From Escherichia coli (GTDB taxonomy: Bacteria > Pseudomonadota > Gammaproteobacteria > Enterobacterales > Enterobacteriaceae): a stretch of 64,000 bases of DNA. The translations under genes and the position numbers were made by a program. The DNA lies in NCBI RefSeq assembly GCF_003018235.1, contig NZ_CP027437.1. One strand, given 5' to 3'. The stretch's first letter is position 1. Every line of letters begins with the position of its first letter. A model generated the notes under the pieces. That model was not told the origin of the DNA and did not search any database. It was given only the letters and a program-made list of their open reading frames with translations. Below are positions 1,287 to 15,730 of this stretch, in pieces.

Positions 1287-4200
1287 TTAAGGAAAAATAA
1301 CCCCGTATTCTTCAAACGCAGCTCTAGCCGCTGCTTCAGATGCAGCGTTCTGAGTTCCAGTATTTCCGAAATGATAATGACCACTGTGAGGGGCTATATC
1401 AGTACCGAATCGTCCATTCACAACAGTAGCCTCTCCCGCCGCAAGAACTGGTTTTCCATTTGCAATTGCAGCATGAGAAATTTCTATCCCATCTTGCATT
1501 TTTGGTGCAGTTAATAGAGTGCCATCCTCAAGAAGGACATACTTTATATCGCCAGCTTCATCAGCCATATCTGCAAAACGTGGGTCTGATGGTTTCATCG
1601 GTTCAACACCGGCCTCTCTCATTGCAGCCAATTCCTCATCTAAATGTTCCGGTAATTGATTTTTAAACGGGCACCCAATAAAACCCCACGGATCACACCA
1701 GCCCACCGGGTCATGCACATACGACTGCGTGTTCATCCCGCCGCTCAGTTTCAGCGGGTCCTGGCTTAAATACTGCCCCGTTCCGGCATCGTAGTAGCGG
1801 TGTAAATTATACCACAGCCCGCTCTCCTCATCCCGCCACTGGCCCATGAAGCCCGCATCACAGCTTTCACGCTCACTGTCCGGCGAGTCGTTTGCTGCCG
1901 GAAGTCCCCACAGGCTGCGGTGTTTCGTCCACACCTTCTGGCCGTTCGCGCTGTACATCTCCTGTGGTGCGCCGTCCGGGCCGGTCACTATCGGGTAAAA
2001 ATGGCTCCGGTCATCATTCGCCGCCCGGCTTTCCTTTGCCAGCAGTTCAAACCCGTCACGGTAATGCCACTGTTCCCGTAGCGCCGGGCTGCCGTCTGCG
2101 TAGCACTTCTCACTGATGGAAAGCGCCATGCCCTGCCACTGGTAGCGCATTTCACTGATGGCGTGGCCTTGCTGCTTCCATGCAGCACGGATAACGCAGC
2201 GTTTTGCGGTTCTCCGGCCAAAGGCGTCGTAGCTGTACTGCCATACCTCACCGTCTGGTGTCTTTATCTCGCGCAGACGGTCAAAATCGTCCCAGCGGTA
2301 GCGCCACTCCTGTGGGCGAAAGCCGCGTTTTTGTTCTGTGCGCTTTGTCACCCTGCCGCAGGCGTCGTATTCGTAGCGGCTGTCGCCCGCCTGAGTCACA
2401 CATTCACGGCTGTACTGGTGCTGCGACAGAATGCCGTTTATCCGGCTTTCCGCTATCTGCTCGTTTACCGTATAGCGGTAGCGTTCTTCCTGCGCCGGGC
2501 CACCGGCGTCCAGCCGCAGTACGCTGGTTATCTGGTCGCGGGCATCGTACTGGTAGCGCGTTTCCCGCTCCGTGCGCGTTTTCGACCACACTTCATGCCC
2601 GGTCAGGCGGCCCGATTTATCCCACGCGTAGCGGTGTTCGCCCAGCGGTCGCCACGACGCCACGCTCTGGTGACCGCCAGCCAGCCGCTCTGCGCCCTGT
2701 TTTTGCCATGCCGTACGCCCGCAGGCGTCATATCCCTGCTCCTGCATATACACCGCATGGTTCAGCGGCGTCTGTGCCAGCCAGCTTTCCTCATTCTCCG
2801 GGCGGTAACGTCTGCTTTTTTCCAGCCCGGCGGGGGAATGACCGAAGTCCATCCGGTGGCCGTTGCTGCGGTAGCCCATGAGAATGCCCGAAGCATCGTA
2901 TTCTCTCTGTGTTTCCCCGTCCGGCGTTGTGGTGCCCGCCAGCCGTCCGGCTTCGTCGTAACGGTACTCCGTGCGCTGGCCATCCTGCTCTTCCGCCACC
3001 AGGCGATGACGTTCGTCCCACTCCAGTTTTACCTCGCTGGTCAGCGTGTAACCTGCTTCACTGGCATCACTGCGCTCATACACCTGCGCGCTCACCATCC
3101 GGTCATAATGGTCGTACTGATAACAGAGTTGCTGATGCTCGCCGCTGATGGTCGTCACCCGGCCATAGCCATCCCGCGCATAGCGCCATACGCTACCGTC
3201 CGGGCGGTGTTTTTCTGCCAGTCGGCCCTGTTCATCACGGATATAGACGGTTCTGCGTCCGGACCAGTCATCCTCCCCGGCCATCTGGCCCGCTGCATCA
3301 TAGTGCAGCCGCCACTGCTGGTTGCCGCTGCGCGTAAGCTGCGTCAGCCTTGCGGCACCGTCGTAGTTGCAGAGTATCCGCTGCCCGCCCGCGTCTTCCA
3401 CTTCCCGCAGCAGGTCAAATGCCCCGTGGCGGTAGCGCGTGGCCTGCCCCATGGCCCCGGTGTGGAGGGCGATTTTGCCTTCACCGTCATAGCGGAAGGT
3501 TTCCACGCCGCCATCGGCCCGGATAACCGCACTCAGTTTCTCATGCGGGTTATCAGCACCGGGGCGGTACTGCCAGTTCATGCTGCGCCCTTCCGCATCC
3601 ACCAGCCCCGTCAGCCGCAGCCAGCGGTCTTCCGTGTAATGGGTCGTGCGGCCTTCAGCATCCGTATGGGAAAGCAGGCCACCGTGGGCGCTGTAGCCCC
3701 ACTGTTCGTGGCTGCCGTCCGGGTATGTCACTTCCTTCAGCAGACCGTCTTCGGTATGACGGTACTGCCATTTTTGCCCGTTCACTTCCCGCCGGATAAG
3801 GTTCCCTTCGGCGTTATAGCTATAAGCTGCCGTGGTGTGATGGTCACGGTAGGCCGTTACCTGGCCGAACTCATCCCGCTGCCATTCACGCTTGCGCCCG
3901 TTCTCGTCCGTTTCGCTCAGGATACGCCCGGCGTAGTCGCGTTTTATCTGTGTGATACGCCCGCCCGGCTGGCGGATACACAGCGGCTGGTCGTATTCGT
4001 TACGCTCCCATTCAGTGATACGCCCCAGCGGGTCACGCTGTTTTTTCAGCAGCCAGGATTCATCGAACCACAGCGTGGTGGTGGCTCCGGTGGCGTCGGT
4101 ATAATCGGTTCTGCGCTCATCAGGGAAGTAGCGGAAGGTGTCGTTATACAGGCCTTCCTGTGTGCCTGTGGCAGTCACCCGGCCTTCATCGTCATAGCGC

Positions 4201-5813
4201 AGGTGGAAGTGCGTCGGGCCATTGTCGCGCCAGGAACTCAGCCAGCCCTGTTCGGTATAGGTATAGTGCAATGCACCATTAAAGCGGGTCTGTACATCAC
4301 GCAGCCGCTGCTCATCGCCGTGGCTGATATAGTCGTAACGCACCAGCTCGCTGCCGTCTGACTCGTCGGTCACACGGAATATCTGCCCCTGCGGGCCACA
4401 CCTCACCCGCAGACTCAGGCCGCTACTGTGGGTTACGTTTGTCAGGTGGCCGATGGCGTTATAGGTGAAGCGAATTTCGTTGCGGTTGCGGTCTTTTATT
4501 ACTGTTAGCCGCAGACGACGTGCGCCGGGGGAGATGGGCGTAAAGATATAACCCAGTTGTGAGTATTCGTCGAAAATAATAGCCCGCTCACGGTTTCCCA
4601 GGAGGCGATAGTGCGGGACAAGCAGGTTACGGCTACTGTATGGTGCCTGCTCCGTGGAGTAGGCCGGACATAGCCCCTCAGCATCAAAGTAGGTGACGTT
4701 TTTCCCGTTGCTATCGAACTCCAGAAACTGCGACCAGTTACACAACCAGCGACTGCCCAGCAAACCACTAACCGGATGTCGGCCTGTATAAGCACGTTTC
4801 AGCGTCAGCGGTAAAATATGCGAATAGTTGAAATCAGTTCGGTAATCCAGATATTCACCCGTTCCGGTATCCACCGGATCGCTGAACCCCTGACTGATAC
4901 GCTCATTGGCGGCTCTGTTTAACTGCTTTGCTCCCCATAGAGCTGTTAACACCTCCAGACTTGATACAACAGATTGTTCCAGTACCGTCATATCTGCATT
5001 AATCGGCCCATACTGTCCGGTTGTCTTATCAGCCGTGATGGTTTTACATCCTTCCTGAATAACTGCCGAGCAGGTAATTTTATGGCCCTTACGCGCCAGC
5101 GGCAGGCTGTTGACGGAAATAATTTTGCTCCCTTCCACTATCTGCGGAGGAGGACTGCCCGGATCCTTACTACATTCAACCGGATCAGTGACGCGAGCTA
5201 CCGCTTTTCCTTCAAAAAAAACATTAGGTGAGCCTTCTACAATCTGCCCGGTTTCAGATGCCCAGCGGGAACCAATTACCATCGCTGCACCACCGACAAA
5301 TCCACCAGCTAATCCCCCGGCCCCGGCAGCAACGGTGGCAGCAAGCACACCCAATGCGGCGCCCCCTGTAGCGACAACCAGAGCCCCCACTGCAATCCCT
5401 ACGATAAGTCCACCGATTAACCCACCAATAGCACCCAGAAAGGAATTGTTATGAACAATGTGATGACCCACACACGCCGGTATATCTGTTGGGCCGGAAA
5501 CAGCGTGATCTTTACCCCAGGTATCCATGAACCAGTCACCTGCTTTGGTGCCCAGCCATCCCCCCAGCATCCCGCCAGCCAGTCCGGCAATCAAAGGGCC
5601 TCCAAATCCTGCAACAGCTTTGGCTATTCCGGCTGCACAGGTATTTGCTGCGGCGGCTGCCAGTCCCACCTTTGCCGTTGCTCCCACCATGCTGACAGCC
5701 ATTATTCCAGTACTGGCAATATGTCCTGTGGTAGCAATACTCTCCACTGTTTCGGCATTACTGTCCCGTTGGTCCAGCTCCGCTAACTTCTCCTGCGCGC
5801 TTTTTTCCGTCAT
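1287..5813 (-). CDS. Rhs-family T6SS effector: N-terminal Gly/Ala-rich transmembrane region plus PAAR-like domain, YD-repeat shell, DPxG autoproteolysis motif (VHDPVGWCDPWGF), about 130-aa C-terminal toxin domain of unknown type
   Basis: 1508-aa ORF. Many YD repeats (YDxxGR-type), PAAR-like region (VTDPVECS...KGHKITCSA), C-terminal DPVGWCDPWGF followed by a divergent tail. Preceded by a DUF1795/EagR-like gene. Confidence 0.9.
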   Translation of the reverse strand: MTEKSAQEKLAELDQRDSNAETVESIATTGHIASTGIMAVSMVGATAKVGLAAAAANTCAAGIAKAVAGFGGPLIAGLAGGMLGGWLGTKAGDWFMDTWGKDHAVSGPTDIPACVGHHIVHNNSFLGAIGGLIGGLIVGIAVGALVVATGGAALGVLAATVAAGAGGLAGGFVGGAAMVIGSRWASETGQIVEGSPNVFFEGKAVARVTDPVECSKDPGSPPPQIVEGSKIISVNSLPLARKGHKITCSAVIQEGCKTITADKTTGQYGPINADMTVLEQSVVSSLEVLTALWGAKQLNRAANERISQGFSDPVDTGTGEYLDYRTDFNYSHILPLTLKRAYTGRHPVSGLLGSRWLCNWSQFLEFDSNGKNVTYFDAEGLCPAYSTEQAPYSSRNLLVPHYRLLGNRERAIIFDEYSQLGYIFTPISPGARRLRLTVIKDRNRNEIRFTYNAIGHLTNVTHSSGLSLRVRCGPQGQIFRVTDESDGSELVRYDYISHGDEQRLRDVQTRFNGALHYTYTEQGWLSSWRDNGPTHFHLRYDDEGRVTATGTQEGLYNDTFRYFPDERRTDYTDATGATTTLWFDESWLLKKQRDPLGRITEWERNEYDQPLCIRQPGGRITQIKRDYAGRILSETDENGRKREWQRDEFGQVTAYRDHHTTAAYSYNAEGNLIRREVNGQKWQYRHTEDGLLKEVTYPDGSHEQWGYSAHGGLLSHTDAEGRTTHYTEDRWLRLTGLVDAEGRSMNWQYRPGADNPHEKLSAVIRADGGVETFRYDGEGKIALHTGAMGQATRYRHGAFDLLREVEDAGGQRILCNYDGAARLTQLTRSGNQQWRLHYDAAGQMAGEDDWSGRRTVYIRDEQGRLAEKHRPDGSVWRYARDGYGRVTTISGEHQQLCYQYDHYDRMVSAQVYERSDASEAGYTLTSEVKLEWDERHRLVAEEQDGQRTEYRYDEAGRLAGTTTPDGETQREYDASGILMGYRSNGHRMDFGHSPAGLEKSRRYRPENEESWLAQTPLNHAVYMQEQGYDACGRTAWQKQGAERLAGGHQSVASWRPLGEHRYAWDKSGRLTGHEVWSKTRTERETRYQYDARDQITSVLRLDAGGPAQEERYRYTVNEQIAESRINGILSQHQYSRECVTQAGDSRYEYDACGRVTKRTEQKRGFRPQEWRYRWDDFDRLREIKTPDGEVWQYSYDAFGRRTAKRCVIRAAWKQQGHAISEMRYQWQGMALSISEKCYADGSPALREQWHYRDGFELLAKESRAANDDRSHFYPIVTGPDGAPQEMYSANGQKVWTKHRSLWGLPAANDSPDSERESCDAGFMGQWRDEESGLWYNLHRYYDAGTGQYLSQDPLKLSGGMNTQSYVHDPVGWCDPWGFIGCPFKNQLPEHLDEELAAMREAGVEPMKPSDPRFADMADEAGDIKYVLLEDGTLLTAPKMQDGIEISHAAIANGKPVLAAGEATVVNGRFGTDIAPHSGHYHFGNTGTQNAASEAAARAAFEEYGVIFP

Positions 5814-5843: not shown

Positions 5844-6275
5844 TTATTTATCCTGCGGCATTCCAAAACAAAAATTCAATAATGCTCCCCGCATCGCTTT
5901 ACGATCCTCCTCTGCCAGCGCCTGTGTTGAGGAATAGGTCAGCGTCAGTACTTGTCGCTCGTTCAGAATTACCAGCAGCAACTGCTGTATCATCACCCCC
6001 TTGTTATCCCAGCTAAATTCCCAGTATTCCGCCGGGCGCTCCTGTACATGACAGCGTTCTTCGACGGTGAACACCATTTTCGACAGTTCGGTACGGAATT
6101 TCTTTTTCTGCACCGCCAGATAGTCATCAAACTGCGCACCATCCGGCAATATTTCACGGGTAACAACAACATTAGCCCCGGCAATCGCACTTAATACCGG
6201 TGTCAGAATATTCATACTGCTGTCCTGCCAGTTTCCTGGCAGGGTGAAATGTCCTTCATTAATTAGATATTGCAT
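5844..6275 (-). CDS. EagR-like (DUF1795) effector-associated chaperone for the downstream PAAR-Rhs
   Basis: 143 aa; N-terminus MQYLINEGHFTLPGNWQDSSMNIL matches the typical DUF1795 start pattern (recalled). Sits directly upstream of an rhs with an N-terminal TM region. Confidence 0.7.
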   Translation of the reverse strand: MQYLINEGHFTLPGNWQDSSMNILTPVLSAIAGANVVVTREILPDGAQFDDYLAVQKKKFRTELSKMVFTVEERCHVQERPAEYWEFSWDNKGVMIQQLLLVILNERQVLTLTYSSTQALAEEDRKAMRGALLNFCFGMPQDK

Positions 6276-6480
6276 TCTCTTCCCCTGACATTAATTAAAA
6301 AAAATACCATTGATTTAATAATTGAATAACACCAAGATACTTGCATCATGAGTTTATATAGTTTTCCCGCCAACCTATATTTGTTTTTTCACACAAATAA
6401 GAATGTACTTACACACAAACCAATAAATCCACTGGTATCTAAAATAATTATTCTTTACATTATCTTAATCACAGATTTTA

Positions 6481-6930
6481 CTAATGGTTTCTCAAAAAAA
6501 TCTTTGCGTAATTAGGATTATTTAACTCTAAGTTCACCACATTAGATTTAAAATTATAAAAATCCGCATCTCTATCATCCTCTGTAACCTTTGAATCAAC
6601 CGTCGACCACACATTCGTATAAAAACTACACTCATGCTTTCCTGGCGTAATATGGTAATCTCTGGCAATTTGTACATAGTCCCCCACCTTCATTTCTCCG
6701 GGAGAGATTTTGTAATATTCCCCTTGTCCAAGGTTGTACATTACACCTGAATAACGAATCTTCTTGCCATCACATTCAACACTCAATTGATCGGAGCTCG
6801 GATATTTACCTTGAGATATGTACCTGACATCTATATATAATGGAATTTCACCATTATTTTTAACACGTACAGCAACATAAACGTCATCTTCTTTGGGTAT
6901 AACATCCACAATAACCATGTAACATGGCAT
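6481..6930 (-). CDS. Hypothetical protein downstream of vgrG; candidate immunity/partner for the VgrG C-terminal domain
   Basis: AT-rich ORF starting just after the vgrG stop; no obvious signal peptide; start codon uncertain (ATG at 6930 or 6918). Confidence 0.4.
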   Translation of the reverse strand: MPCYMVIVDVIPKEDDVYVAVRVKNNGEIPLYIDVRYISQGKYPSSDQLSVECDGKKIRYSGVMYNLGQGEYYKISPGEMKVGDYVQIARDYHITPGKHECSFYTNVWSTVDSKVTEDDRDADFYNFKSNVVNLELNNPNYAKIFLRNH

Positions 6931-6946
6931 CCATAAATTAAGCCTT

Positions 6947-9784
6947 TTATTCAAAATAACGTTCAAAGTTATAAGCACTTTGTAATGAGGCCCGCTTACC
7001 CTTTTTAGCTAGATCTATACCACCACTTCTTAAACCCTCATCAAAACTTCCGAGCACATCATAAAAATGTGACATTTCATGAATCAAAGTTATGACTTGT
7101 GAATCACGACCGTCCAGGGGATCGTCAATAAATTTATTTCCAAGATAAATGGTATGGGTATAATCTCCATCATTAACTCTTCCATGAACATTAACATCCA
7201 TAAATTCAAAATTTTGGTACTTAATCCCCTCATTAATTTCAATTTCTTTTTTTACAGCGTTTAAAATTTTATTCCTGGCTGCCTCATCATCAACACCGAA
7301 TATATTTCCAAAACGCTCTTTATCGTTATCATTCCAACGAATCAACTCATCTCTTGCTGATTTTAATTTTTTACGCTGCGCTTCAAGAACAAGTTTCATA
7401 TCATTTTCACTGATCCTTTTCTCCTCTATCATTTCATAAACAGGATTTCCATAATTATCTGTAAGAGGTTTTCCATTATATCCAATTATAGCTACTCCAT
7501 TACCCGGCCCTGATGTAGAAAAATCTCTAATTGTATTAATTTTATATTTACCATTTGCGTCACTACCGCCAGGATTCAGTGCCAAGTGAGTAGGTCCATC
7601 AAGGATGATAGTGCCGTCTGAATTCATCACGAGAGTGCTGCTTCCCACAGTCAACGTAATGTTCGTTGCCGCAGTCAAATGAATGGCACCAGATTTTGAT
7701 GTGATGGTAATATCCCCTTCGACAGTCTCCGTGCAGGTTCCCGTTTCTACCGTCACTTCGCGTTTACCCGTTTTCACCGTCAGAGACTGGTCACCTTCTG
7801 TCACAGTAATATCCCGGTTGCCTTTGATGGTTTCGGTGTGCTTACCCTCAACAAATTCTGTGCGATCGATTTTTACCGTAGATGTTTCGTTATGAATGAT
7901 GGTTTTCGTCCGATCTGCCTTTACCGTGTGTGTTTCGTTATTTTTCACGACGGTATTCAGATCTTTCTCCGCAAGAAACCTCACTTCTTCCGCACCTGTT
8001 TTATCGTCAAAGCGCAGCATGTTTCCGTTGGTCGGCCCGCCATACAGCGAGTGGCTGAATATCCCGCTCTGCGACGCCATGCCCGGCAATCCCCACGGCG
8101 GCATGGTGTCCTGGTTATAGGTGCGCCCTACAATGATCGGTAAATCCGGGTCGCCGTTTTTGAAATCCACCAGCACTTCCTGGCCGATGCGCGGGATCTG
8201 GATCATCCCGAATCCTTTCCCCGCCCACGGGTAGCTGACGCGGATCCAGCAGGAGCTGTTTTCGTCATTCTTTCCGTAACGGTCCCAGCCAAACTGGACC
8301 TTCACCCGGCCATATTTATCCGTCCAGATTTCCTGCCCCGCAGGGCCGGTGACGATGGCGCTCTGCGGGCCTTTGGTGTGGGGTTTGCTCAGGGTTCGCT
8401 GTGGGCGGTAAACTTCGCTGGTGGGATGCAGTTCAAACGTGGTGACATAGGTAAAATGCTGCTCCTGACCGCTGTGCTGCGCATTATCCCGTAAAAACAG
8501 CGTGGTCTGTACCAGTAGGTATTCCTGGTTGACCTCTGCCGTTGGATGATTCATCAGCGTAAAGGTGTAACCCGTCATGAGGGTGCGGATATGACCTGCC
8601 CCATGTGCCCGGCTGCCGGGGCTGCGCTGCGCTTCCATACGAATGCGCGTCAGCATCTCGCCTTCGCCCGTAGTGAAGTAATCACCAGGCCATTCATAAT
8701 GCTCGTATTCAGCATGACCGGTATCACGCGGACTAGCCACGGTACTTTTAAGCAGCGAACGAGGCTTCATAAAATCAAAATCGTCCATCACCCACTTTCC
8801 AGTACGTAGCCTCTCACTGGCCGTAATGGTGTGGATAAATTCCTTGTCCAGTTTCAGACCTTCCTGGTGCCACTCCACCAGTGGCGAGTCAGGGCACGCT
8901 TTATGACCATTGATGGCATCCGCCAGCACCAGCGTATGGCTGTTCTCGCTGTGCTCAAACCACCAGTAAATTCCCCACTCCTGCATCAGGCGCTGGATGA
9001 AATCAAAATCCGTTTCACCGTACTGTACCTGCCAGGCACGAGGTGGATAATTTTCCACCAGCCGTTTTTCCACCGGAAAGGAATATTCATCCAGTACTTC
9101 ATCGAGAATATCCACCACGGTTTTATTCTGGAACGCCTTGTAGTCGCTGGTATGGGTCAGCAGCTTCAGCCATGGCTCAATGCGTAATTCATACGTTACC
9201 GAACGGCCCTCATGGCCGACCACCCGCGCTGCCGTCACCAGCCCGCTGATATACCGTTTTTCGCCACCGTCCAGTTCAATACTGACGCACAGGTCTTTGC
9301 CCACCATGGGCTGAAGCGGCAGGTTGGCAGCGGGAGAAACGTAACCCAGGTTCAGGATGTCCGGCGTTTTAAGCTGTACTGTGTAGGAAAACAGATTCCC
9401 AAGTCCTTCCGAACCATTCATGCCTGCAAACAAAAGCAACTGCGGCGGCACCGCGCTACCACTTACTGTGACGTTATGCGCCCCCGGACCACCGGCTGCA
9501 AGCGACGACGCCGCATCCTGAACTGTACCAGCCATATCCGAGATCCCTACTGCAGCAGCGGCAGCCTGCGCAGCAGTTACTGCAGCTTTAACCAGACCTG
9601 ACGGTTCCGGCAACGCACCAAACAGGTCCGCCGCGGCCTGTTCTGCCATCTCCTCGGCGGCACCAGATACATCGGTTACGGCTGAACTGGCGCTTACAGC
9701 ACTACTTTCTCCGGCTATCGGTGGCGTGGAGATAGCTGGCCCACCGTTACTGCCAGATTTATTACTCGTAGATACAAAACTCAT
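6947..9784 (-). CDS. vgrG: VgrG (TssI) spike protein, 'evolved' type, with an AT-rich C-terminal extension containing an HExxH motif
   Basis: 945 aa. gp27-like region ([25 protein letters not shown]), gp5 OB-fold and beta-helix repeats (VKVQFGWD..., TVKxxR repeats). C-terminal about 180 aa is low GC and contains LIHEMSHF. Good SD (AAAGGA) upstream of the ATG at 9784. Confidence 0.9.
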
Positions 9785-9808: not shown

Positions 9809-10180
9809 TTAGAATTTAGCGCCCGGCGGCCAGAAAAAATAAGAAATAACCCGCCACTGTCCATCTTTATAATGAAAAAAACATGTCAGATTTAAATCCC
9901 CCCGCAAATGCCAAAACATTTCTTTGATGGGAATATTTCTGAATTTAGGATTTGTTGAGCGATAGGTGTTTTCAATTTCTATATAATACTCACCGACAAA
10001 TTTATAACGAGGATTTATAAATTCATACGCTGGCTGACCATAGTTATTTAATAGAACATTCTCTTCAACTCCATTATACACACCACTCGCATTCAGATAA
10101 GCATGCCCAGGAATATCAGACATGCTATTTTTCGCCCCACCCACTATCAAAAAAATTACCACAGCGTATATTAGTTTCAT
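9809..10180 (-). CDS. Hypothetical exported protein (N-terminal hydrophobic signal/anchor); candidate immunity protein for the upstream HExxH protein
   Basis: 123 aa, N-terminus MKLIYAVVIFLIVGGAKNS; AT-rich; its start overlaps the stop of the upstream ORF by 4 bp. Confidence 0.45.
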   Translation of the reverse strand: MKLIYAVVIFLIVGGAKNSMSDIPGHAYLNASGVYNGVEENVLLNNYGQPAYEFINPRYKFVGEYYIEIENTYRSTNPKFRNIPIKEMFWHLRGDLNLTCFFHYKDGQWRVISYFFWPPGAKF

Positions 10181-10917
10181 TTTTTTACGCTTTTCACAAA
10201 AAAATTAGAACCCGGAACCATTCTATTTAACCGCTCAATGACATTTCCCATATAACGAGAGCGCAGTTCCATACCAATATTCATTAACGCACTGGCGTCC
10301 CCGGAGAATGGTGTAGTTGCTTTATCTGCATCATCACTATAGTATTCATCAGCAAGATATCCAATAATATGCCCAAGCTCGTGAGACAGCCCTATTTGCT
10401 CATGGCAAACTTTTGATGAGCCAAGACATTTAGCTGCTGCAACTATATCTTTAGAGTCAAGTTCAACGTATCGACTATTCCAGACAATGGAACTCTGTCG
10501 AAAACTATTTGGATCATCATTATCAATTTTAAACACCACCACATCCCAATACCCATGACGATCAGTCTGAATTATTTCTATTGAGAAAGATAAATCCTTA
10601 CCATTAAACTTACTGGCAAACTCAGACTTCCCAGAAACGGATAAAAAAATCTTATTATTCCATGTTTGATTAATGACAAAAATAACTTCCCCATGAAAGG
10701 TATTTTTCTCCAAATCTGTCCAGTCAGTTTTTGCATCCCATCTTTTTATCCAATTATATTTCCATCTCAGCAACAATGAGATTGCACCATTTTCACGGTC
10801 AATTCTTAAATCTCCCCAGGCATCATTGTCCCTGAAATATCGTTTATCCAGCATTAAGTCGTCATAAGCATCGTATGCCTGCTGAATAGCCTCATCATGA
10901 GAGTTACCCATGATCAC
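10177..10917 (-). CDS. Hypothetical protein with HExxH zinc-metallopeptidase motif (SHELGHIIGYLADEY); candidate T6SS effector
   Basis: 246-aa AT-rich ORF between tagF and vgrG; HELGH motif followed by Gly and acidic residues; no signal peptide. Confidence 0.5.
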   Translation of the reverse strand: MIMGNSHDEAIQQAYDAYDDLMLDKRYFRDNDAWGDLRIDRENGAISLLLRWKYNWIKRWDAKTDWTDLEKNTFHGEVIFVINQTWNNKIFLSVSGKSEFASKFNGKDLSFSIEIIQTDRHGYWDVVVFKIDNDDPNSFRQSSIVWNSRYVELDSKDIVAAAKCLGSSKVCHEQIGLSHELGHIIGYLADEYYSDDADKATTPFSGDASALMNIGMELRSRYMGNVIERLNRMVPGSNFFVKSVKK

Positions 10918-11102: not shown

Positions 11103-11834
11103 TTATTTTTTCTCCAGTCGCAAAGCATCCACATACCGCCCTTCGCTGTTCTGCTGCCAGAACCAGCCCTGCCCCTGCTGCGCCTGCGTCAGCATTTTGT
11201 CCGGCCAGCCCGGCCACGGCAGGTGGCGCACACCGGGCAGTTCCACTACCGGCGCATCCGGCAGCCCGGTGAGTTCCCGGCTACGCTGCGGCACACGTCG
11301 TAGGCCGCGCAGCCATTGCGTCCAGCGCTGCCCCGGTCGCCACATCGCCCAGAGCTGGTCGGCCTGCTCTGCCAGTCGCCCGCGCCGTTCCGCCTGTGGT
11401 GCAACCTGCGCCGCCACCAGCCGCGCCAGCCAGTACAGCCAGCCCTGTGTGTCATCCAGGCTCTCTTCCAGCCATTCCCGCCCGGCACACTGGTAAATCA
11501 CCAGTGGCCACGGCCTGCCCGTACTGTCACGCGAGGCGGTCAGTACCCCGGTCAGCCACTCATCGCGCCCACCAATGGGTAAAAATCCCGGCGATAAAAC
11601 AAAGCTCCACGGTAGCGGATGGTGTTCCGGCACCGCCGTTTTCTCGCGCGGTGACAGATGCATCCAACCGTCAGTTACTCCGGTCTTCGCAGCATCCGTT
11701 CCTTCCGGCAGAACAATATGCCGCCCCTGTCCCAGCCACGTCTGCTGGTTCAGCCACGCCTGCCACACCTGCCCTTCGTTCGCACTCACCCGCCAGCGCA
11801 CATAGTCCCGCTGGTCCGGCAGTCTGCCGAACAT
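11103..11834 (-). CDS. tagF: TagF-like (DUF2094) T6SS accessory protein
   Basis: Directly downstream of tssM; N-terminus MFGRLPDQRDYV fits the FGKLPxxGDF pattern of TagF/ImpM. Start chosen at the internal Met to avoid overlapping tssM. Confidence 0.6.
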   Translation of the reverse strand: MFGRLPDQRDYVRWRVSANEGQVWQAWLNQQTWLGQGRHIVLPEGTDAAKTGVTDGWMHLSPREKTAVPEHHPLPWSFVLSPGFLPIGGRDEWLTGVLTASRDSTGRPWPLVIYQCAGREWLEESLDDTQGWLYWLARLVAAQVAPQAERRGRLAEQADQLWAMWRPGQRWTQWLRGLRRVPQRSRELTGLPDAPVVELPGVRHLPWPGWPDKMLTQAQQGQGWFWQQNSEGRYVDALRLEKK

Positions 11835-11863
11835 CGCCGGAGCCGATACCACTGCCCGGCGAA

Positions 11864-14800
11864 TCACAGCGCTCGCTCCGGGCAGGCGAAGCGTTGCAAT
11901 AGTCCGCGATCCACTGGGTCAAAATCCCGTCCGGCGGTGATTTCCAGTATCACCCGCCGACCATCAAAGCTGTACTCCACCTGCTGTGTTCCCCGTACCG
12001 CCGTTTCTTGCGCTTTTCCCGCATCCAGCAGGTGAAACAGCGCCCACGGTCCATTAGTCAGCAGCGTCGAGGTGTCCTGGCGGATGCGCGGGCTGGCGGT
12101 TATTTCCGCCATTGAGCCGTTGCGCGGACCCGGCCAGTTAACTTTCAGCGGCCTGACCGGGCCGTGAGCGTAACGCAGTACCTGGCCGTCAATGTCAATC
12201 ACCAGTTCGGTGATGGCCGGGTCCATATCCACGACGCGGACCTGCATCGCCCATGAGAACTTTTTCCCTCCGTCGCCGTTAAAAAACACGCTGCGGATCT
12301 GTTTCGCCTCCTGAAACGGCGTCAGGTCCGGCCCCTGTAAGGTCATGTTGCCTTCGGTCGGTTTGTAGCGCCACGGATTGCTGGCGGTGTCCGCCTGTGG
12401 GGCCAGTTGCTTCGTCCAGAAGGCATCCAGCACGCCGCCGCTGGCAAAGATACGGTTAAAATCGTCCGCGCTGACCTCCTGCGGGCTGTCGGTGAAGGGG
12501 TAGCGCCCGTCGATGGCGTCGCGGCACTCATCACCGATCACCGCTTCCATCTGCGCGTTCAGCACTTCACCGGTGCCGGCGTTGATTTTTCGCGTTCCCT
12601 GCTGCGTGAGATCCAGCAGAATATTTTTCAGCGGCGCGGGCAGTTTTGCCGCCTCCAGTTGCAGTTTATCCGCCGCAGAAATGCGCCCCGGCAGAGTGCT
12701 CGCAGCCAGCGCACTGTCGGCAATGGTGAGCTGAGTGTAATACTCATTGAGCATCGTCAGCAGCGAATTTAATTGCGGCACGCCGCCGCCCTGCCCGCTG
12801 TCCGTCCGCCCGGAAACCACTTCCCGCAGGGCGGCGAAGCGGTCTTCCACCAGTGATTTTTCCAGCCGCTCTTCCGGGTGAATGTCCTGCAACAGCTTCG
12901 CCGTCTGCACCGCTTTTCCCGCATTGCCGGAGAGCCGGTCCTGCGCGCGCTGGGCCATCTGCTTTTGTCTGGCCTGCGCATCCAGAGGCGGCACCAGCGT
13001 GGTCTGCACCACCACCGCTTTACTCAGGCGCATCAGCGGGGAATCCGGCGAGGCCAGAGTGCGGAGCACCTGAAGGTCATACGCTAGTCCAGGGCTACCG
13101 TCCTCCCCGGCGCTGTTGATGCTGTGAATGCTTGCCAGAAAATCCTGCCATCGGCGAGCATATTCAGCCAGGTACAGACGACGTACCTCACGGGTAACCG
13201 GGAGTTCCTGCCCCGGTAGCTGACTCATCACAATATCAGTCGTTTTTTTTTGCGCACTTTCCCGGCCCATCACCCAGGCGTCGTCCGCTGATGCGGCGGC
13301 GACAAACTCCGACAGCCGTTTGTCGAACAGTTCCCGGTAGCCTTCGCGGGTGAAGATGCCGGGCACGCCCCTGTCCAGCGGCGCGCCATCCGTGCGGACA
13401 AAAACCGTTCCCGCATCCGCGCCCACAGCGCGAACCAGCGAAAACTCCTGCGGTGCTTCGCTCTCCATGGAAGCCAGGGCTCGAGTGTAGATACGCTCAG
13501 TGCTGTTATGGCCGTCAAGGAAGGCCCGCGCCTGGCGGATCAGCCCCTCATCTTTTTCCCAGGGCGAATGCACCACGCGGCTGCCGTCAAACAGGGCGTC
13601 AATATGCTCCAGCACGGCTGCGCGACCGCCAAACTCCGCTACGCTGTCGCGGTTGTCCAGATCGTTCAGCACCCAGGCGTGGATCTCCGCCGCGTTGTAT
13701 TTGTCCTCGTGGTCCTTATCGAGGTTCAGCAGCAGATAAACATGCAGGGCGTCATAGGCGGCTTTGCTGTCCTGACGCGCAATCGCATCTGAAAGCACGT
13801 ATTCCATTCGTTTCACCAGCGGAGGGAGCAGTAGCTGGTCCAGCAGGCGGTCATACAGGGATGCGACACTCTCCATCACCGGCGGGACGCTGTAAAGACC
13901 ATAACGCCAGGCCAGCGGCGGCGAGTCCGGGTCCATCCCCGGCCAGGCAGAGAGCGCCCGCGCCTGATTCAGCAGGGCCGGAACAGGCTGCATAGCAGGT
14001 TTTCCGGTATAGGCTTTGACATCACCATCCAGTTGGGTCGTCCGGCTGGCGATTTCATTCAGATAACCGCTGTTACCCTGCTGGCTACCCTGCATTCCCT
14101 GCCACAACCAGAAAACCAGCGCCAATACCAGCAGATGCCCGCCGGTACGCAGCAGGCGATAACGCCAGGCCCATTGAAGATTCGGCTCCACCAGGTGCGC
14201 TTCGCGGAAGATAAACCGCGTCAGTAGATCGTGCAGGAAATAGCTGCGGTTGCCGTCCGGCAGGGTATGGGATGGGGAATCTGCCTTCCCTTTGATCGCC
14301 CGGACAAAACGCTGCCAGATGCCTGTCTGATCGGCCACCGCGTCTGCCTGCGCCTGCGCGGCACTGGTGAAAAATACGCCGCGCAGGGTGTTGTTAAGCT
14401 GGGTAGCATCAAATTTTGAATCGAGGAAAATCTGTTCAATAGCTTCCAGCAGCGGCGCGCCCAGCGCGGCAAATTCACGCGGGAAGCGGTAGAGCCGCTG
14501 ACGGCTTTTAAGGTCGTACTCTTCCTGCAACCGGGTATCCAGCCCCTGATCCAGCCGCTGTGTCAGGTTTGCCAGTTCCCGGCCACAGAGCGCATGCAGC
14601 GACTGCGGATCGCTGGCGTGACGCCTGCGGCTGTAAGGCAGGGTGAAGCCCCAGACCTGGGCTCGCAGGTGACTGGTCAACCCACGGAAATACTCCGTAA
14701 AGCCCGGCAGCAGATCCATCTTGGTGACAACCAGATAGACCGGAAAACGAATGCCCAGCGTCTCCCGCAGTTCCGCCAGCCGCGCACGCAGAGCTGCACA

Positions 14801-15730
14801 GGCAGCCAGCCGTTCCGCCGGGGACTGCGCGGTCAGATCCGCCACGTTCAGCGTCAGGATCACGCCGTTGAGCGGTGCGCCTGGGCGGTGTTTACGCAGC
14901 AGCCCCAGAAACCCCTGCCATTCCCCGGCGTTACGCTGGGTCGCGCTGATTTCGCCGCCGTCATCGTGTCGGGCATAGCGCCCGGCGGTATCAATAAGCA
15001 CTGCTTCGTTGGTAAACCACCAGTCGCAGTGCAGCGTGCCGCCGCCCGGCACGGTGAGGATATGCGCGGTCTGCTCCATCTGCTCCGCCAGCGGAAACTG
15101 TAGCCCGGTGTTAAGCAGCGCAGTGGTTTTACCATCGCCGGGGCTGCCGATAACCATAAACCACGGCAGTTCGTACAGAAAACGCTTTCCTTCCAGGACT
15201 TTTCGCCAGCCAGGAAGATCCACACGCAGTTGTTTCAGTTGCCGGATGGCGCGGCTGACAATATGGCTGACGGTACGCAGGTCGGCTTTAATTTCCCCTG
15301 CCACAGGTACGTCTTCCCCACGCGGATGCAGGAAACGGCGCAGCAGTTGTTCATCCAGACGCAGCGCCCGCCACAGCCGGTACAGGCCATACAGAGCATA
15401 AGTCAGCAGGATCAGACCGATAAGCGTCAGACGCAGCCACAGCGGCGCAAATGGATGAACATCACCGAGGGACAGCAGGGGTGAAACAAAACCGATGACC
15501 AGGCACAGAACCGTCACGCCAATGATGCTCATCGACCAGTTAACCAGCCACAGTGCGAGGAACATCAGTAACAGAACGATGGTGACTACCCGACTTCCCA
15601 CGGACGCGAGCGGATGCAGGGTGTCAAACGCCACCAGCGGCCCAACAAACCAGACCAGCAACGCCAGCATCACCACGCCAACAATGGCCAGCGCGCGGCG
15701 GGAAAACAGCATACTGAGAAATTTTTGCAT
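11864..15730 (-). CDS. tssM: TssM (IcmF-like) T6SS membrane complex protein
   Basis: 1288 aa; N-terminal TM helices; Walker A GSPGDGKTT; large periplasmic C-terminal domain. Confidence 0.9.
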   Translation of the reverse strand: MQKFLSMLFSRRALAIVGVVMLALLVWFVGPLVAFDTLHPLASVGSRVVTIVLLLMFLALWLVNWSMSIIGVTVLCLVIGFVSPLLSLGDVHPFAPLWLRLTLIGLILLTYALYGLYRLWRALRLDEQLLRRFLHPRGEDVPVAGEIKADLRTVSHIVSRAIRQLKQLRVDLPGWRKVLEGKRFLYELPWFMVIGSPGDGKTTALLNTGLQFPLAEQMEQTAHILTVPGGGTLHCDWWFTNEAVLIDTAGRYARHDDGGEISATQRNAGEWQGFLGLLRKHRPGAPLNGVILTLNVADLTAQSPAERLAACAALRARLAELRETLGIRFPVYLVVTKMDLLPGFTEYFRGLTSHLRAQVWGFTLPYSRRRHASDPQSLHALCGRELANLTQRLDQGLDTRLQEEYDLKSRQRLYRFPREFAALGAPLLEAIEQIFLDSKFDATQLNNTLRGVFFTSAAQAQADAVADQTGIWQRFVRAIKGKADSPSHTLPDGNRSYFLHDLLTRFIFREAHLVEPNLQWAWRYRLLRTGGHLLVLALVFWLWQGMQGSQQGNSGYLNEIASRTTQLDGDVKAYTGKPAMQPVPALLNQARALSAWPGMDPDSPPLAWRYGLYSVPPVMESVASLYDRLLDQLLLPPLVKRMEYVLSDAIARQDSKAAYDALHVYLLLNLDKDHEDKYNAAEIHAWVLNDLDNRDSVAEFGGRAAVLEHIDALFDGSRVVHSPWEKDEGLIRQARAFLDGHNSTERIYTRALASMESEAPQEFSLVRAVGADAGTVFVRTDGAPLDRGVPGIFTREGYRELFDKRLSEFVAAASADDAWVMGRESAQKKTTDIVMSQLPGQELPVTREVRRLYLAEYARRWQDFLASIHSINSAGEDGSPGLAYDLQVLRTLASPDSPLMRLSKAVVVQTTLVPPLDAQARQKQMAQRAQDRLSGNAGKAVQTAKLLQDIHPEERLEKSLVEDRFAALREVVSGRTDSGQGGGVPQLNSLLTMLNEYYTQLTIADSALAASTLPGRISAADKLQLEAAKLPAPLKNILLDLTQQGTRKINAGTGEVLNAQMEAVIGDECRDAIDGRYPFTDSPQEVSADDFNRIFASGGVLDAFWTKQLAPQADTASNPWRYKPTEGNMTLQGPDLTPFQEAKQIRSVFFNGDGGKKFSWAMQVRVVDMDPAITELVIDIDGQVLRYAHGPVRPLKVNWPGPRNGSMAEITASPRIRQDTSTLLTNGPWALFHLLDAGKAQETAVRGTQQVEYSFDGRRVILEITAGRDFDPVDRGLLQRFACPERAL

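Follow-up and report, generated by a model that had tools for sequence, protein, structure and literature searches.

A type VI secretion spike protein of Escherichia coli with an aspzincin-type extension and a candidate inhibitor related to zymogen pro-domains

What does a VgrG spike protein carry when its gene continues, in a single open reading frame (ORF), beyond the point at which ordinary vgrG genes of the same species end, and what might be the role of the small ORF that follows? This question is raised by a type VI secretion system (T6SS) cluster, located on the minus strand of a 64,000-nucleotide (nt) stretch of Escherichia coli contig NZ_CP027437.1 (assembly GCF_003018235.1; hereafter the window), in which a vgrG gene encoding 945 amino acids (aa) (nt 6947-9784) is followed 16 nt downstream by an ORF of 149 aa (nt 6481-6930). 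A preliminary description, made from the sequence alone, had proposed that the AT-rich C-terminal extension of this VgrG, which contains an HExxH motif, is a toxin domain resembling zinc metallopeptidases that was acquired horizontally and joined to the spike, and had named the next ORF, which lacks a signal peptide, as a candidate immunity or partner protein. The analysis presented here indicates that the locus probably encodes an evolved T6SS spike carrying the catalytic half of an aspzincin zymogen, with a separately encoded pro-domain homologue as its inhibitor.

The aspzincin-type module of the VgrG extension

The core of the window VgrG (residues 1-737; nt 7574-9784) comprises gp27-like, OB-fold, gp5 beta-helix and DUF2345 regions, with Pfam matches to Phage_GPD (residues 126-434), Phage_base_V (489-556), Gp5_trimer_C (573-680) and DUF2345 (663-732), and the protein was assigned to NCBIfam TIGR03361 (E 1e-165). 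The sequence reads through ...LALNP, the same ending as that of the ordinary VgrG core, and continues for a further 208 residues (738-945), slightly more than the approximately 180 aa first proposed. With a complete core followed by an effector-type domain in the same intact ORF, the protein is an evolved (specialised) VgrG. The GC content of the extension (0.332; nt 6947-7500) is markedly below that of the core (0.539; residues 1-734) and of the whole window (0.519). A linker occupies residues 738-771 (nt 7472-7573), lacks any Pfam match, recognisable domain or TTR domain, and was modelled with a low to moderate predicted local distance difference test (pLDDT) score of 49-74; it leads into the module of residues 772-945 (nt 6950-7471), in front of which no pro-domain was found in cis.

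The HExxH motif of the extension reads HEMSH (nt 7067-7081; H902, E903 and H906), in a motif stretch spanning residues 900-917, with D915 encoded at nt 7040-7042. It is not a chance motif, because it lies inside a near-full-length match to the Pfam family PF14521, Aspzincin_M35 (residues 819-944, model positions 6-141 of 142, E 1e-6). When all PDB chains were searched with phmmer, the only matches were AsaP1 of Aeromonas salmonicida (E 1.5e-4) and GfMEP, the Grifola peptidyl-Lys metalloendopeptidase (E 0.016), and the alignment placed HEMSHF...GSFDEG of the window opposite HELSHF...GTDDLG. An exhaustive search over 1.84 billion representatives retrieved 197 relatives of the toxin domain, of which 145 were used to construct a family profile. 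This profile matched AsaP1 (E 2e-41), GfMEP (6e-41) and deuterolysin (5e-9) in the PDB, and no other metallopeptidases were among its weaker matches there. Word-indexed protein searches were nearly empty (two matches for the toxin, one for the small ORF and one for an eight-sequence profile) and are little guide to the true distribution.

An AlphaFold2 model of the toxin domain, built on the family alignment, reached a pLDDT of 89, and approximately 98 in the catalytic part. Its Foldseek matches in the PDB at E<=1e-3 were exclusively to AsaP1, GfMEP and deuterolysin, with TM scores of 0.74-0.79 to GfMEP (PDB 1g12/1ge6) and 0.64 to deuterolysin (1eb6). The module begins at a conserved GNPVYEM motif near residue 777 and has about the size of a mature aspzincin, approximately 165-175 aa in GfMEP/Lys-N and deuterolysin, which share its fold but are secreted fungal enzymes, GfMEP being Lys-specific. 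Hidden Markov model match, PDB sequence search and predicted fold all identify VgrG residues ~772-945 as a complete aspzincin (MEROPS M35, PF14521) catalytic domain, for which the preliminary description had seen no assignment to a named family; neither Pfam nor structure prediction matched the extension to a non-enzymatic adaptor domain.

Judged by the family alignment, the zinc ligands H902, H906 and D915 and the general base E903 are intact. Across the 145 relatives, the glutamate and the second histidine of HExxH are invariant, the first histidine is present in all but one (144/145), and the D915 column holds aspartate in 140. E941 is likewise conserved in the window module. Four cysteine columns that are invariant in the secreted zymogens (73/73) are lacking in the T6SS-linked toxins, apart from one exception at a single column, and the catalytic part of the window toxin contains no cysteine. 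The loss of these disulfide cysteines is consistent with folding in the cytoplasm.

The downstream ORF and the pro-domains of aspzincin zymogens

Classical aspzincins, including AsaP1, the Lys-N/GfMEP-type enzymes and the Lysobacter and Xanthomonas proteases, consist of a signal peptide, a beta-sandwich pro-domain and the catalytic domain. The small ORF of the window returned no match in Pfam or NCBIfam, and a word-based protein search retrieved only a cluster of E. coli sequences named ‘hypothetical protein’. A profile was then built from five stand-alone proteins, namely the small ORF and the ORFs downstream of four toxin homologues, all of which align together. It matched the AsaP1 precursor (343 residues) at positions 31-155, upstream of the catalytic domain (E 2e-7), and the N-termini of three natural one-piece zymogens (P0100, P0085 and P0118; E 1.7e-17 to 4.5e-11). 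When the small-ORF family was compared by hhalign with 30 natural pro-domains drawn from Lysobacter, Xanthomonas, Massilia, myxobacteria and Anaerolineae, a probability of 98.7% was obtained (E 3.5e-16). The small ORF was itself modelled as a beta-sandwich. These profile comparisons identify it as a homologue of the N-terminal pro-domain of aspzincin zymogens.

Unlike a classical pro-domain, the small ORF is a separate gene located downstream, without a covalent N-terminal link to the catalytic domain. Because it is a pro-domain homologue encoded behind that domain, toxin and small ORF together would appear to be a zymogen split into two genes with their order reversed. No signal peptide was found on the small ORF, in which the first beta-strand begins at residue 4 and leaves no room for one. 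Its reading as a dedicated partner that lacks a signal peptide is supported, and the linkage of the two genes is kept across carriers.

AsaP1 (PDB 2x3a/2x3b/2x3c) and the secreted pro-aspzincins resemble the window pair in the catalytic fold and the HExxH...D zinc site, and the beta-sandwich pro-domain of AsaP1 is a homologue of the small ORF on the profile evidence above. AsaP1, however, is secreted as a single chain that contains both domains and has conserved cysteines, whereas the window pair is encoded by two genes in the reverse order, without signal peptides or conserved cysteines, and its catalytic half is carried on VgrG. The window toxin also differs from AsaP1 in that the tyrosine of the GTxDxxYG motif and the aspartate of NAD are replaced, and the modelled inter-domain arrangement differs from the crystal.

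Separately encoded, pro-peptide-like inhibitors exist for other proteases, as exemplified by the streptococcal Spi, which is directed against SpeB, and by the subtilisin-propeptide-like inhibitors of MEROPS family I9. These share with the window pair the use of a free-standing homologue of the protease's own pro-region as inhibitor, but their targets are cysteine or serine proteases, and they do not belong to the toxin-immunity pairs of secretion systems.

Recurrence of the pair and boundaries of the cassette

Among the 145 representatives, 142 matched PF14521, and of these 23 also contained PAAR, three a VgrG core, two Hcp and one Rhs/TcdB. A scan of one genome per species with a trimmed 17-sequence alignment yielded 79 loci. 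Among the T6SS-linked loci examined, nearly all have a pro-domain-like ORF behind the toxin: 15 such toxin ORFs from 13 loci, with VgrG, PAAR or stand-alone carriers, are each followed by one. About 70 other loci encode zymogens of the classical kind, whose pro-domain and catalytic domain share a single ORF. Independent fusions to VgrG were found in a Neisseriaceae isolate and in metagenome-assembled genomes (MAGs) of Herminiimonas, Geobacter and Acidobacteriaceae. In Enterobacter sp. ENT03, Trabulsiella, Buttiauxella, Parasulfuritortus and Phytobacter, the toxin has a gene of its own immediately behind vgrG, and in a metagenomic relative and Chimaeribacter it is fused to PAAR. The recurrence of the pair behind VgrG, PAAR and Hcp carriers marks these aspzincins, by their sequences, as a T6SS toxin family. 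Some of the stand-alone homologues are named ‘M35 family metallo-endopeptidase’ in databases.

The closest relatives of the window toxin are the PAAR-aspzincin of the metagenomic relative (P0002, 49% identity), the stand-alone toxin of Enterobacter sp. ENT03 (L009, 50%), the Chimaeribacter toxin (L012) and a VgrG of Cronobacter turicensis with the same domain, which was found in the AlphaFold database (AFDB; A0A2T7AUC4, 48%). They have in common with the window toxin the subclade motifs HEMSHFxDVLGxxDxGxR ... AYNFERYF and the pre-toxin GNPVYEM, and differ in their carrier, which is a PAAR fusion, a separate gene after vgrG or a VgrG fusion. In the loci examined (P0002, L009 and L012), a pro-domain-like ORF without a signal peptide lies directly downstream, as in the window. 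The Chimaeribacter coloradensis copy (L012, 3514-4889) has fallen apart into three ORFs that overlap one another, with frameshifts as the apparent cause, and its downstream pro-domain-like ORF has a diverged C-terminus; this copy is probably decaying.

At other loci, the pro-domain-like ORF has a signal peptide or membrane anchor, as in Neisseriaceae, Buttiauxella, Trabulsiella, Phytobacter, Limnobacter, Parasulfuritortus, Herminiimonas and Acidobacteriaceae (L003, L004/L011, L010, L005, L015-L018 and L028). In the Geobacter MAG (L014), the VgrG-aspzincin is followed by two pro-domain-like ORFs (4500-4940 and 4909-5469), one without a signal peptide and the other with a hydrophobic N-terminal anchor, as if both cytoplasm and periplasm were protected. 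Niastella populi (L021, 449-4850) harbours a tandem array of four toxin/pro-domain-like ORF cassettes, in which two of the four toxins have been reduced to C-terminal remnants of 67-68 aa, an arrangement reminiscent of the orphan toxin/immunity arrays known from polymorphic toxin loci. Free-standing pro-domain homologues are not confined to T6SS loci, since the one-piece secreted pro-aspzincins of Massilia and its relatives often adjoin an extra stand-alone pro-domain-like ORF on the opposite strand (L030 4269-4772, L033 4388-4996, L038 4277-4768, L048 4360-4875, L063 4305-4796 and others).

The window pair arrived as a cassette. As far as nt 7572, the vgrG core DNA is approximately 82-92% identical to the vgrG genes of other E. 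coli, and the VgrGs of 198 other E. coli genomes align only to this position, so that the break in homology coincides with the break in composition. An ordinary E. coli locus (for instance L088) has a vgrG of 739 aa followed, after a gap of 27 nt, by a DcrB-like gene, and alignment of the window to ordinary loci is resumed at nt 6276 with 97% identity. Low GC persists past the toxin domain, at 0.36 in the small ORF and 0.27 in the spacer behind it. Given the GC break, the end of alignment at nt 7572 and the resumption of homology at nt 6276, an AT-rich cassette of 1.3 kb (~6277-7573), made up of the linker, the toxin domain, the small ORF and a spacer of 205 nt, was inserted precisely where the native VgrG sequence ends, ahead of the DcrB-like chaperone gene, and the proposed horizontal acquisition of the extension is borne out as acquisition of the cassette type.

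Near-identical DNA was detected in only three of 5426 complete E. coli genomes, all of them from environmental isolates, and in one of the three the cluster adjoins fadE-ivy-yafV. The vgrG reading frame runs through all 945 codons without a break in the window, as it does in strains MEI003 and VCSW7. RefSeq (PGAP) nevertheless flags vgrG as a pseudogene, ‘incomplete; missing C-terminus’, in the two annotated genomes checked of the three with the cassette (L001 13307-15484, NZ_CP071263.1; L002 9308-11485, NZ_CP082357.1). This call is an annotation artefact, given the unbroken ORF of the window and of both annotated genomes, and was probably caused by the reference VgrGs ending at residue 739. 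Through it the toxin domain drops out of protein databases, in which the full-length VgrG-aspzincin is largely invisible; a fragment of 161 aa is all of the domain that they contain.

The remainder of the cluster lies on either side of the vgrG gene. Downstream of the cassette and outside it are a gene for a DcrB/DUF1795-type (Eag) chaperone (nt 5844-6275), whose equivalent is named ‘DcrB-related protein’ in RefSeq, with a Pfam DcrB match at the equivalent position of L003, and the gene of the PAAR-Rhs polymorphic toxin that it serves (nt 1287-5813), which uses the same spike and has NCBIfam matches to YD repeats, an Rhs-associated core and a PAAR domain. GC content falls to 0.30-0.40 over nt 900-1500, a stretch that takes in the 3' end of rhs and an overlapping ORF of 157 aa (nt 911-1384), for which no family match was found. 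Such a drop typically marks a swapped cassette of Rhs C-terminal toxin and immunity gene. Within VgrG, an Ala/Ser-rich N-terminal stretch of approximately 110 residues (residues 1-110; nt 9455-9784) precedes the gp27-like domain, and a nearly identical VgrG core of solved structure (PDB 9mlp) aligns from residue 91 only.

Upstream of vgrG lie tssM (nt 11864-15730), a tagF-like gene (nt 11103-11867) and, directly before vgrG, two AT-rich ORFs (both GC 0.37) that form a second candidate metallopeptidase pair. The first of these (246 aa; nt 10177-10917) contains GLSHELGHIIGYLADEY, in which HExxH is followed by DEY, and has weak Pfam matches to M64 and M57; the second (123 aa; nt 9809-10180) begins with the signal-peptide-like MKLIYAVVIFLIVGGA. 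In contrast to the aspzincin cassette, this pair also occurs in ordinary E. coli loci, for example L088.

Proposed mode of action and alternative explanations

In the proposed mechanism, the cargo of the spike is the catalytic half of an aspzincin zymogen, fused directly to the native VgrG C-terminus. The small protein is expected to bind and block the protease as a pro-domain does, thereby shielding the producer and its kin as an immunity protein, and possibly to help the protease fold. On T6SS firing, the VgrG trimer would bring three protease domains, free of inhibitor, into an adjacent cell, in which one or more essential proteins may be cleaved by them. For the subclade formed by the E. 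coli, Enterobacter, Chimaeribacter and PAAR-fused metagenomic members, the most likely site of action is the cytoplasm of the target cell, because the cognate inhibitor of this subclade lacks a signal peptide; in subclades with exported inhibitors, the toxin would act in the periplasm. The small ORF of the window presumably encodes an immunity protein. Exported copies of pro-domain-like proteins make sense only against an incoming toxin, which supports such a role for the family.

Several observations weigh against this interpretation. The lack of a signal peptide on the small ORF would be just as compatible with a function confined to holding the protease in check within the producer, and no biochemical or genetic data on any member of the aspzincin T6SS family were found in the literature. 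Compared with strains VCSW7 and MEI003, the window has a 1-nt insertion near the 5' end of the small ORF (~6917). The ATG used in those strains, which gives a protein of 150 aa beginning MDAMLQVIVDV..., reaches a stop after 16 codons in the window, where the small ORF starts instead at the ATG at nt 6930, in another frame (MPCYMVIVDV...). The extra base may reflect either true variation between strains or an error of sequencing, and leaves the beta-sandwich unaffected. The window's subclade also reads SAYNFE in place of NADNFE, with Y938 replacing the second-shell aspartate of NAD, which, together with the change of tyrosine to Leu918 described below, means that activity or specificity could be altered.

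The modelled complex counts both for and against the proposal. The small ORF and the toxin were joined by a 30-residue Gly/Ser linker and modelled on an alignment of 15 artificially fused pairs and 73 natural zymogens, which gave a pLDDT of 86 and a predicted TM score (pTM) of 0.78. Both domains superpose on many natural pro-aspzincin models of AFDB50 (TMq 0.64-0.71, root-mean-square deviation (rmsd) 4-6 Å), a match that is not independent of the zymogens in the alignment. The model does not superpose on Aeromonas-type AlphaFold models, and against the AsaP1 crystal both domains align (E 2e-14) but only one superposes (rmsd ~19 Å, TMt 0.47). The fusion model thus lends weak and partly circular support to pro-domain-like docking. 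An AsaP1-like zymogen arrangement was not recovered in the comparison with the crystal, a failure that the AFDB models rescue only partly, and no particular mode of binding is read from the model.

Amongst the alternatives, one that we consider unlikely is that the protease targets eukaryotic cells or works outside the cell, as does the fish toxin AsaP1, with the small protein serving only as a pre-secretion inhibitor or folding chaperone. A producer that has to restrain a protease made in its cytoplasm needs exactly a pro-domain homologue without a signal peptide, and AsaP1, the closest characterised relative by sequence, was deposited as a ‘toxic extracellular endopeptidase’; VgrG2b was also first described as acting on host cells (PMC6899460). 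However, related loci have exported or anchored inhibitors, which would be useless for pre-secretion control, and the Geobacter MAG has inhibitors of both kinds. Taken together, the members of the family behave like effector-immunity pairs directed against bacteria, and the window locus is otherwise a cluster of antibacterial type, with its PAAR-Rhs toxin and Eag chaperone.

It is less probable again that the module is a degenerate, inactive aspzincin retained as a binding, adaptor or structural spike tip, for example in loading PAAR-Rhs, with the small ORF as its partner. This idea draws on the RefSeq treatment of the gene as a pseudogene and on the two residues replaced in the subclade. The GTxDxxYG motif of aspzincins reads GSFDEGLR in the window, where the aspartate is kept, threonine is changed to serine, tyrosine to Leu918 and glycine to arginine. 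The Y938 column holds aspartate in 127 of the 145 relatives and tyrosine in 12, namely the window's subclade and a few outliers. The residue equivalent to Tyr938 in GfMEP is Asp154, which forms a hydrogen bond with the zinc ligand His117 (PMC3268031). Against inactivity, all three metal ligands and the general base are intact, as is the ORF in the window and in two annotated genomes, and ordinary E. coli loci run the same PAAR-Rhs/Eag set with a VgrG that has no extension. Both substitutions are moreover common to a subclade of several genera and three carrier types in which AYNFERYF is conserved, which argues for selection rather than decay; because they are conserved across genera and carriers, the Leu918 and Tyr938 substitutions look like a functional variant, with a substrate specificity that may differ from that of Lys-N-type enzymes, zinc-dependent endopeptidases that take Lys at P1'.

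VgrG2b of P. aeruginosa was the analogue named in the preliminary description, and the likeness holds only insofar as both are evolved VgrGs with DUF2345, a C-terminal HExxH metallopeptidase and a small ORF downstream that is protective, in the window presumably so. The C-terminal domain of VgrG2b is thermolysin-like, is usually annotated as DUF4157, coordinates zinc through H935, H939 and E983, and is toxic only in the periplasm, where PA0261 neutralises it (PMC6899460). The two systems differ in metallopeptidase family, and the VgrG2b system further has a TTR linker, periplasmic toxicity and an exported immunity protein. The label ‘M35’, used for the VgrG2b domain in a 2023 paper (PMC10673891), is distinct from the true M35/aspzincin identity found here. 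An ‘M35-like’ effector of E. coli BCE049 is toxic in the periplasm (PMC7904677). That the window protein is itself a periplasm-acting, DUF4157-like effector of VgrG2b type with a periplasmic immunity protein is very improbable, despite the same architecture and the ‘M35’ label given to that family in E. coli papers (e.g. PMC10673891), as its third ligand is an aspartate nine residues after the second histidine rather than a glutamate corresponding to E983, every sequence and fold match is to aspzincins, and there is neither a TTR linker nor a signal peptide on the partner ORF. In the PDB search with the family profile, no VgrG2b chain was retrieved at E<=10, and none was present among the fold matches.

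An evolved spike with a detached pro-domain homologue as inhibitor is hence the interpretation we prefer. Its more detailed form would have a zymogen split giving rise to a toxin-immunity pair, in which the pro-domain became the immunity protein and possibly a folding chaperone acting in trans, and the catalytic domain a modular, disulfide-free T6SS warhead. In the Enterobacteriaceae subclade of the window, the active site would have been remodelled, with tyrosine lost from GTxDxxYG and gained at the NAD position, and, the inhibitor being cytoplasmic, the aspzincin would act on a new substrate within the bacterial cytoplasm. We put this detailed form forward tentatively, as somewhat less than an even chance.

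Evolved VgrGs and metallopeptidase T6SS toxins are already known. Literature searches linking aspzincin, PF14521 or M35 with the T6SS retrieved nothing relevant, and a 2012 catalogue of polymorphic toxins lists other metallopeptidase toxins but not M35. Likewise, no description was found in the literature of a separate pro-domain-like inhibitor for aspzincins, or of such a protein as a T6SS immunity protein. As far as the literature was searched, both an aspzincin-type T6SS effector family and an immunity protein recognisable as the protease's own, separately encoded pro-domain are new.

If the proposed interpretation is correct, the locus would show in concrete terms how evolution can make an effector-immunity pair out of a single zymogen of housekeeping style, and the mechanism of inhibition would have been predicted ahead of experiment. 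Further, with related toxins whose inhibitors are either cytoplasmic or exported, the aspzincins would be a useful family in which to ask where T6SS cargo ends up.

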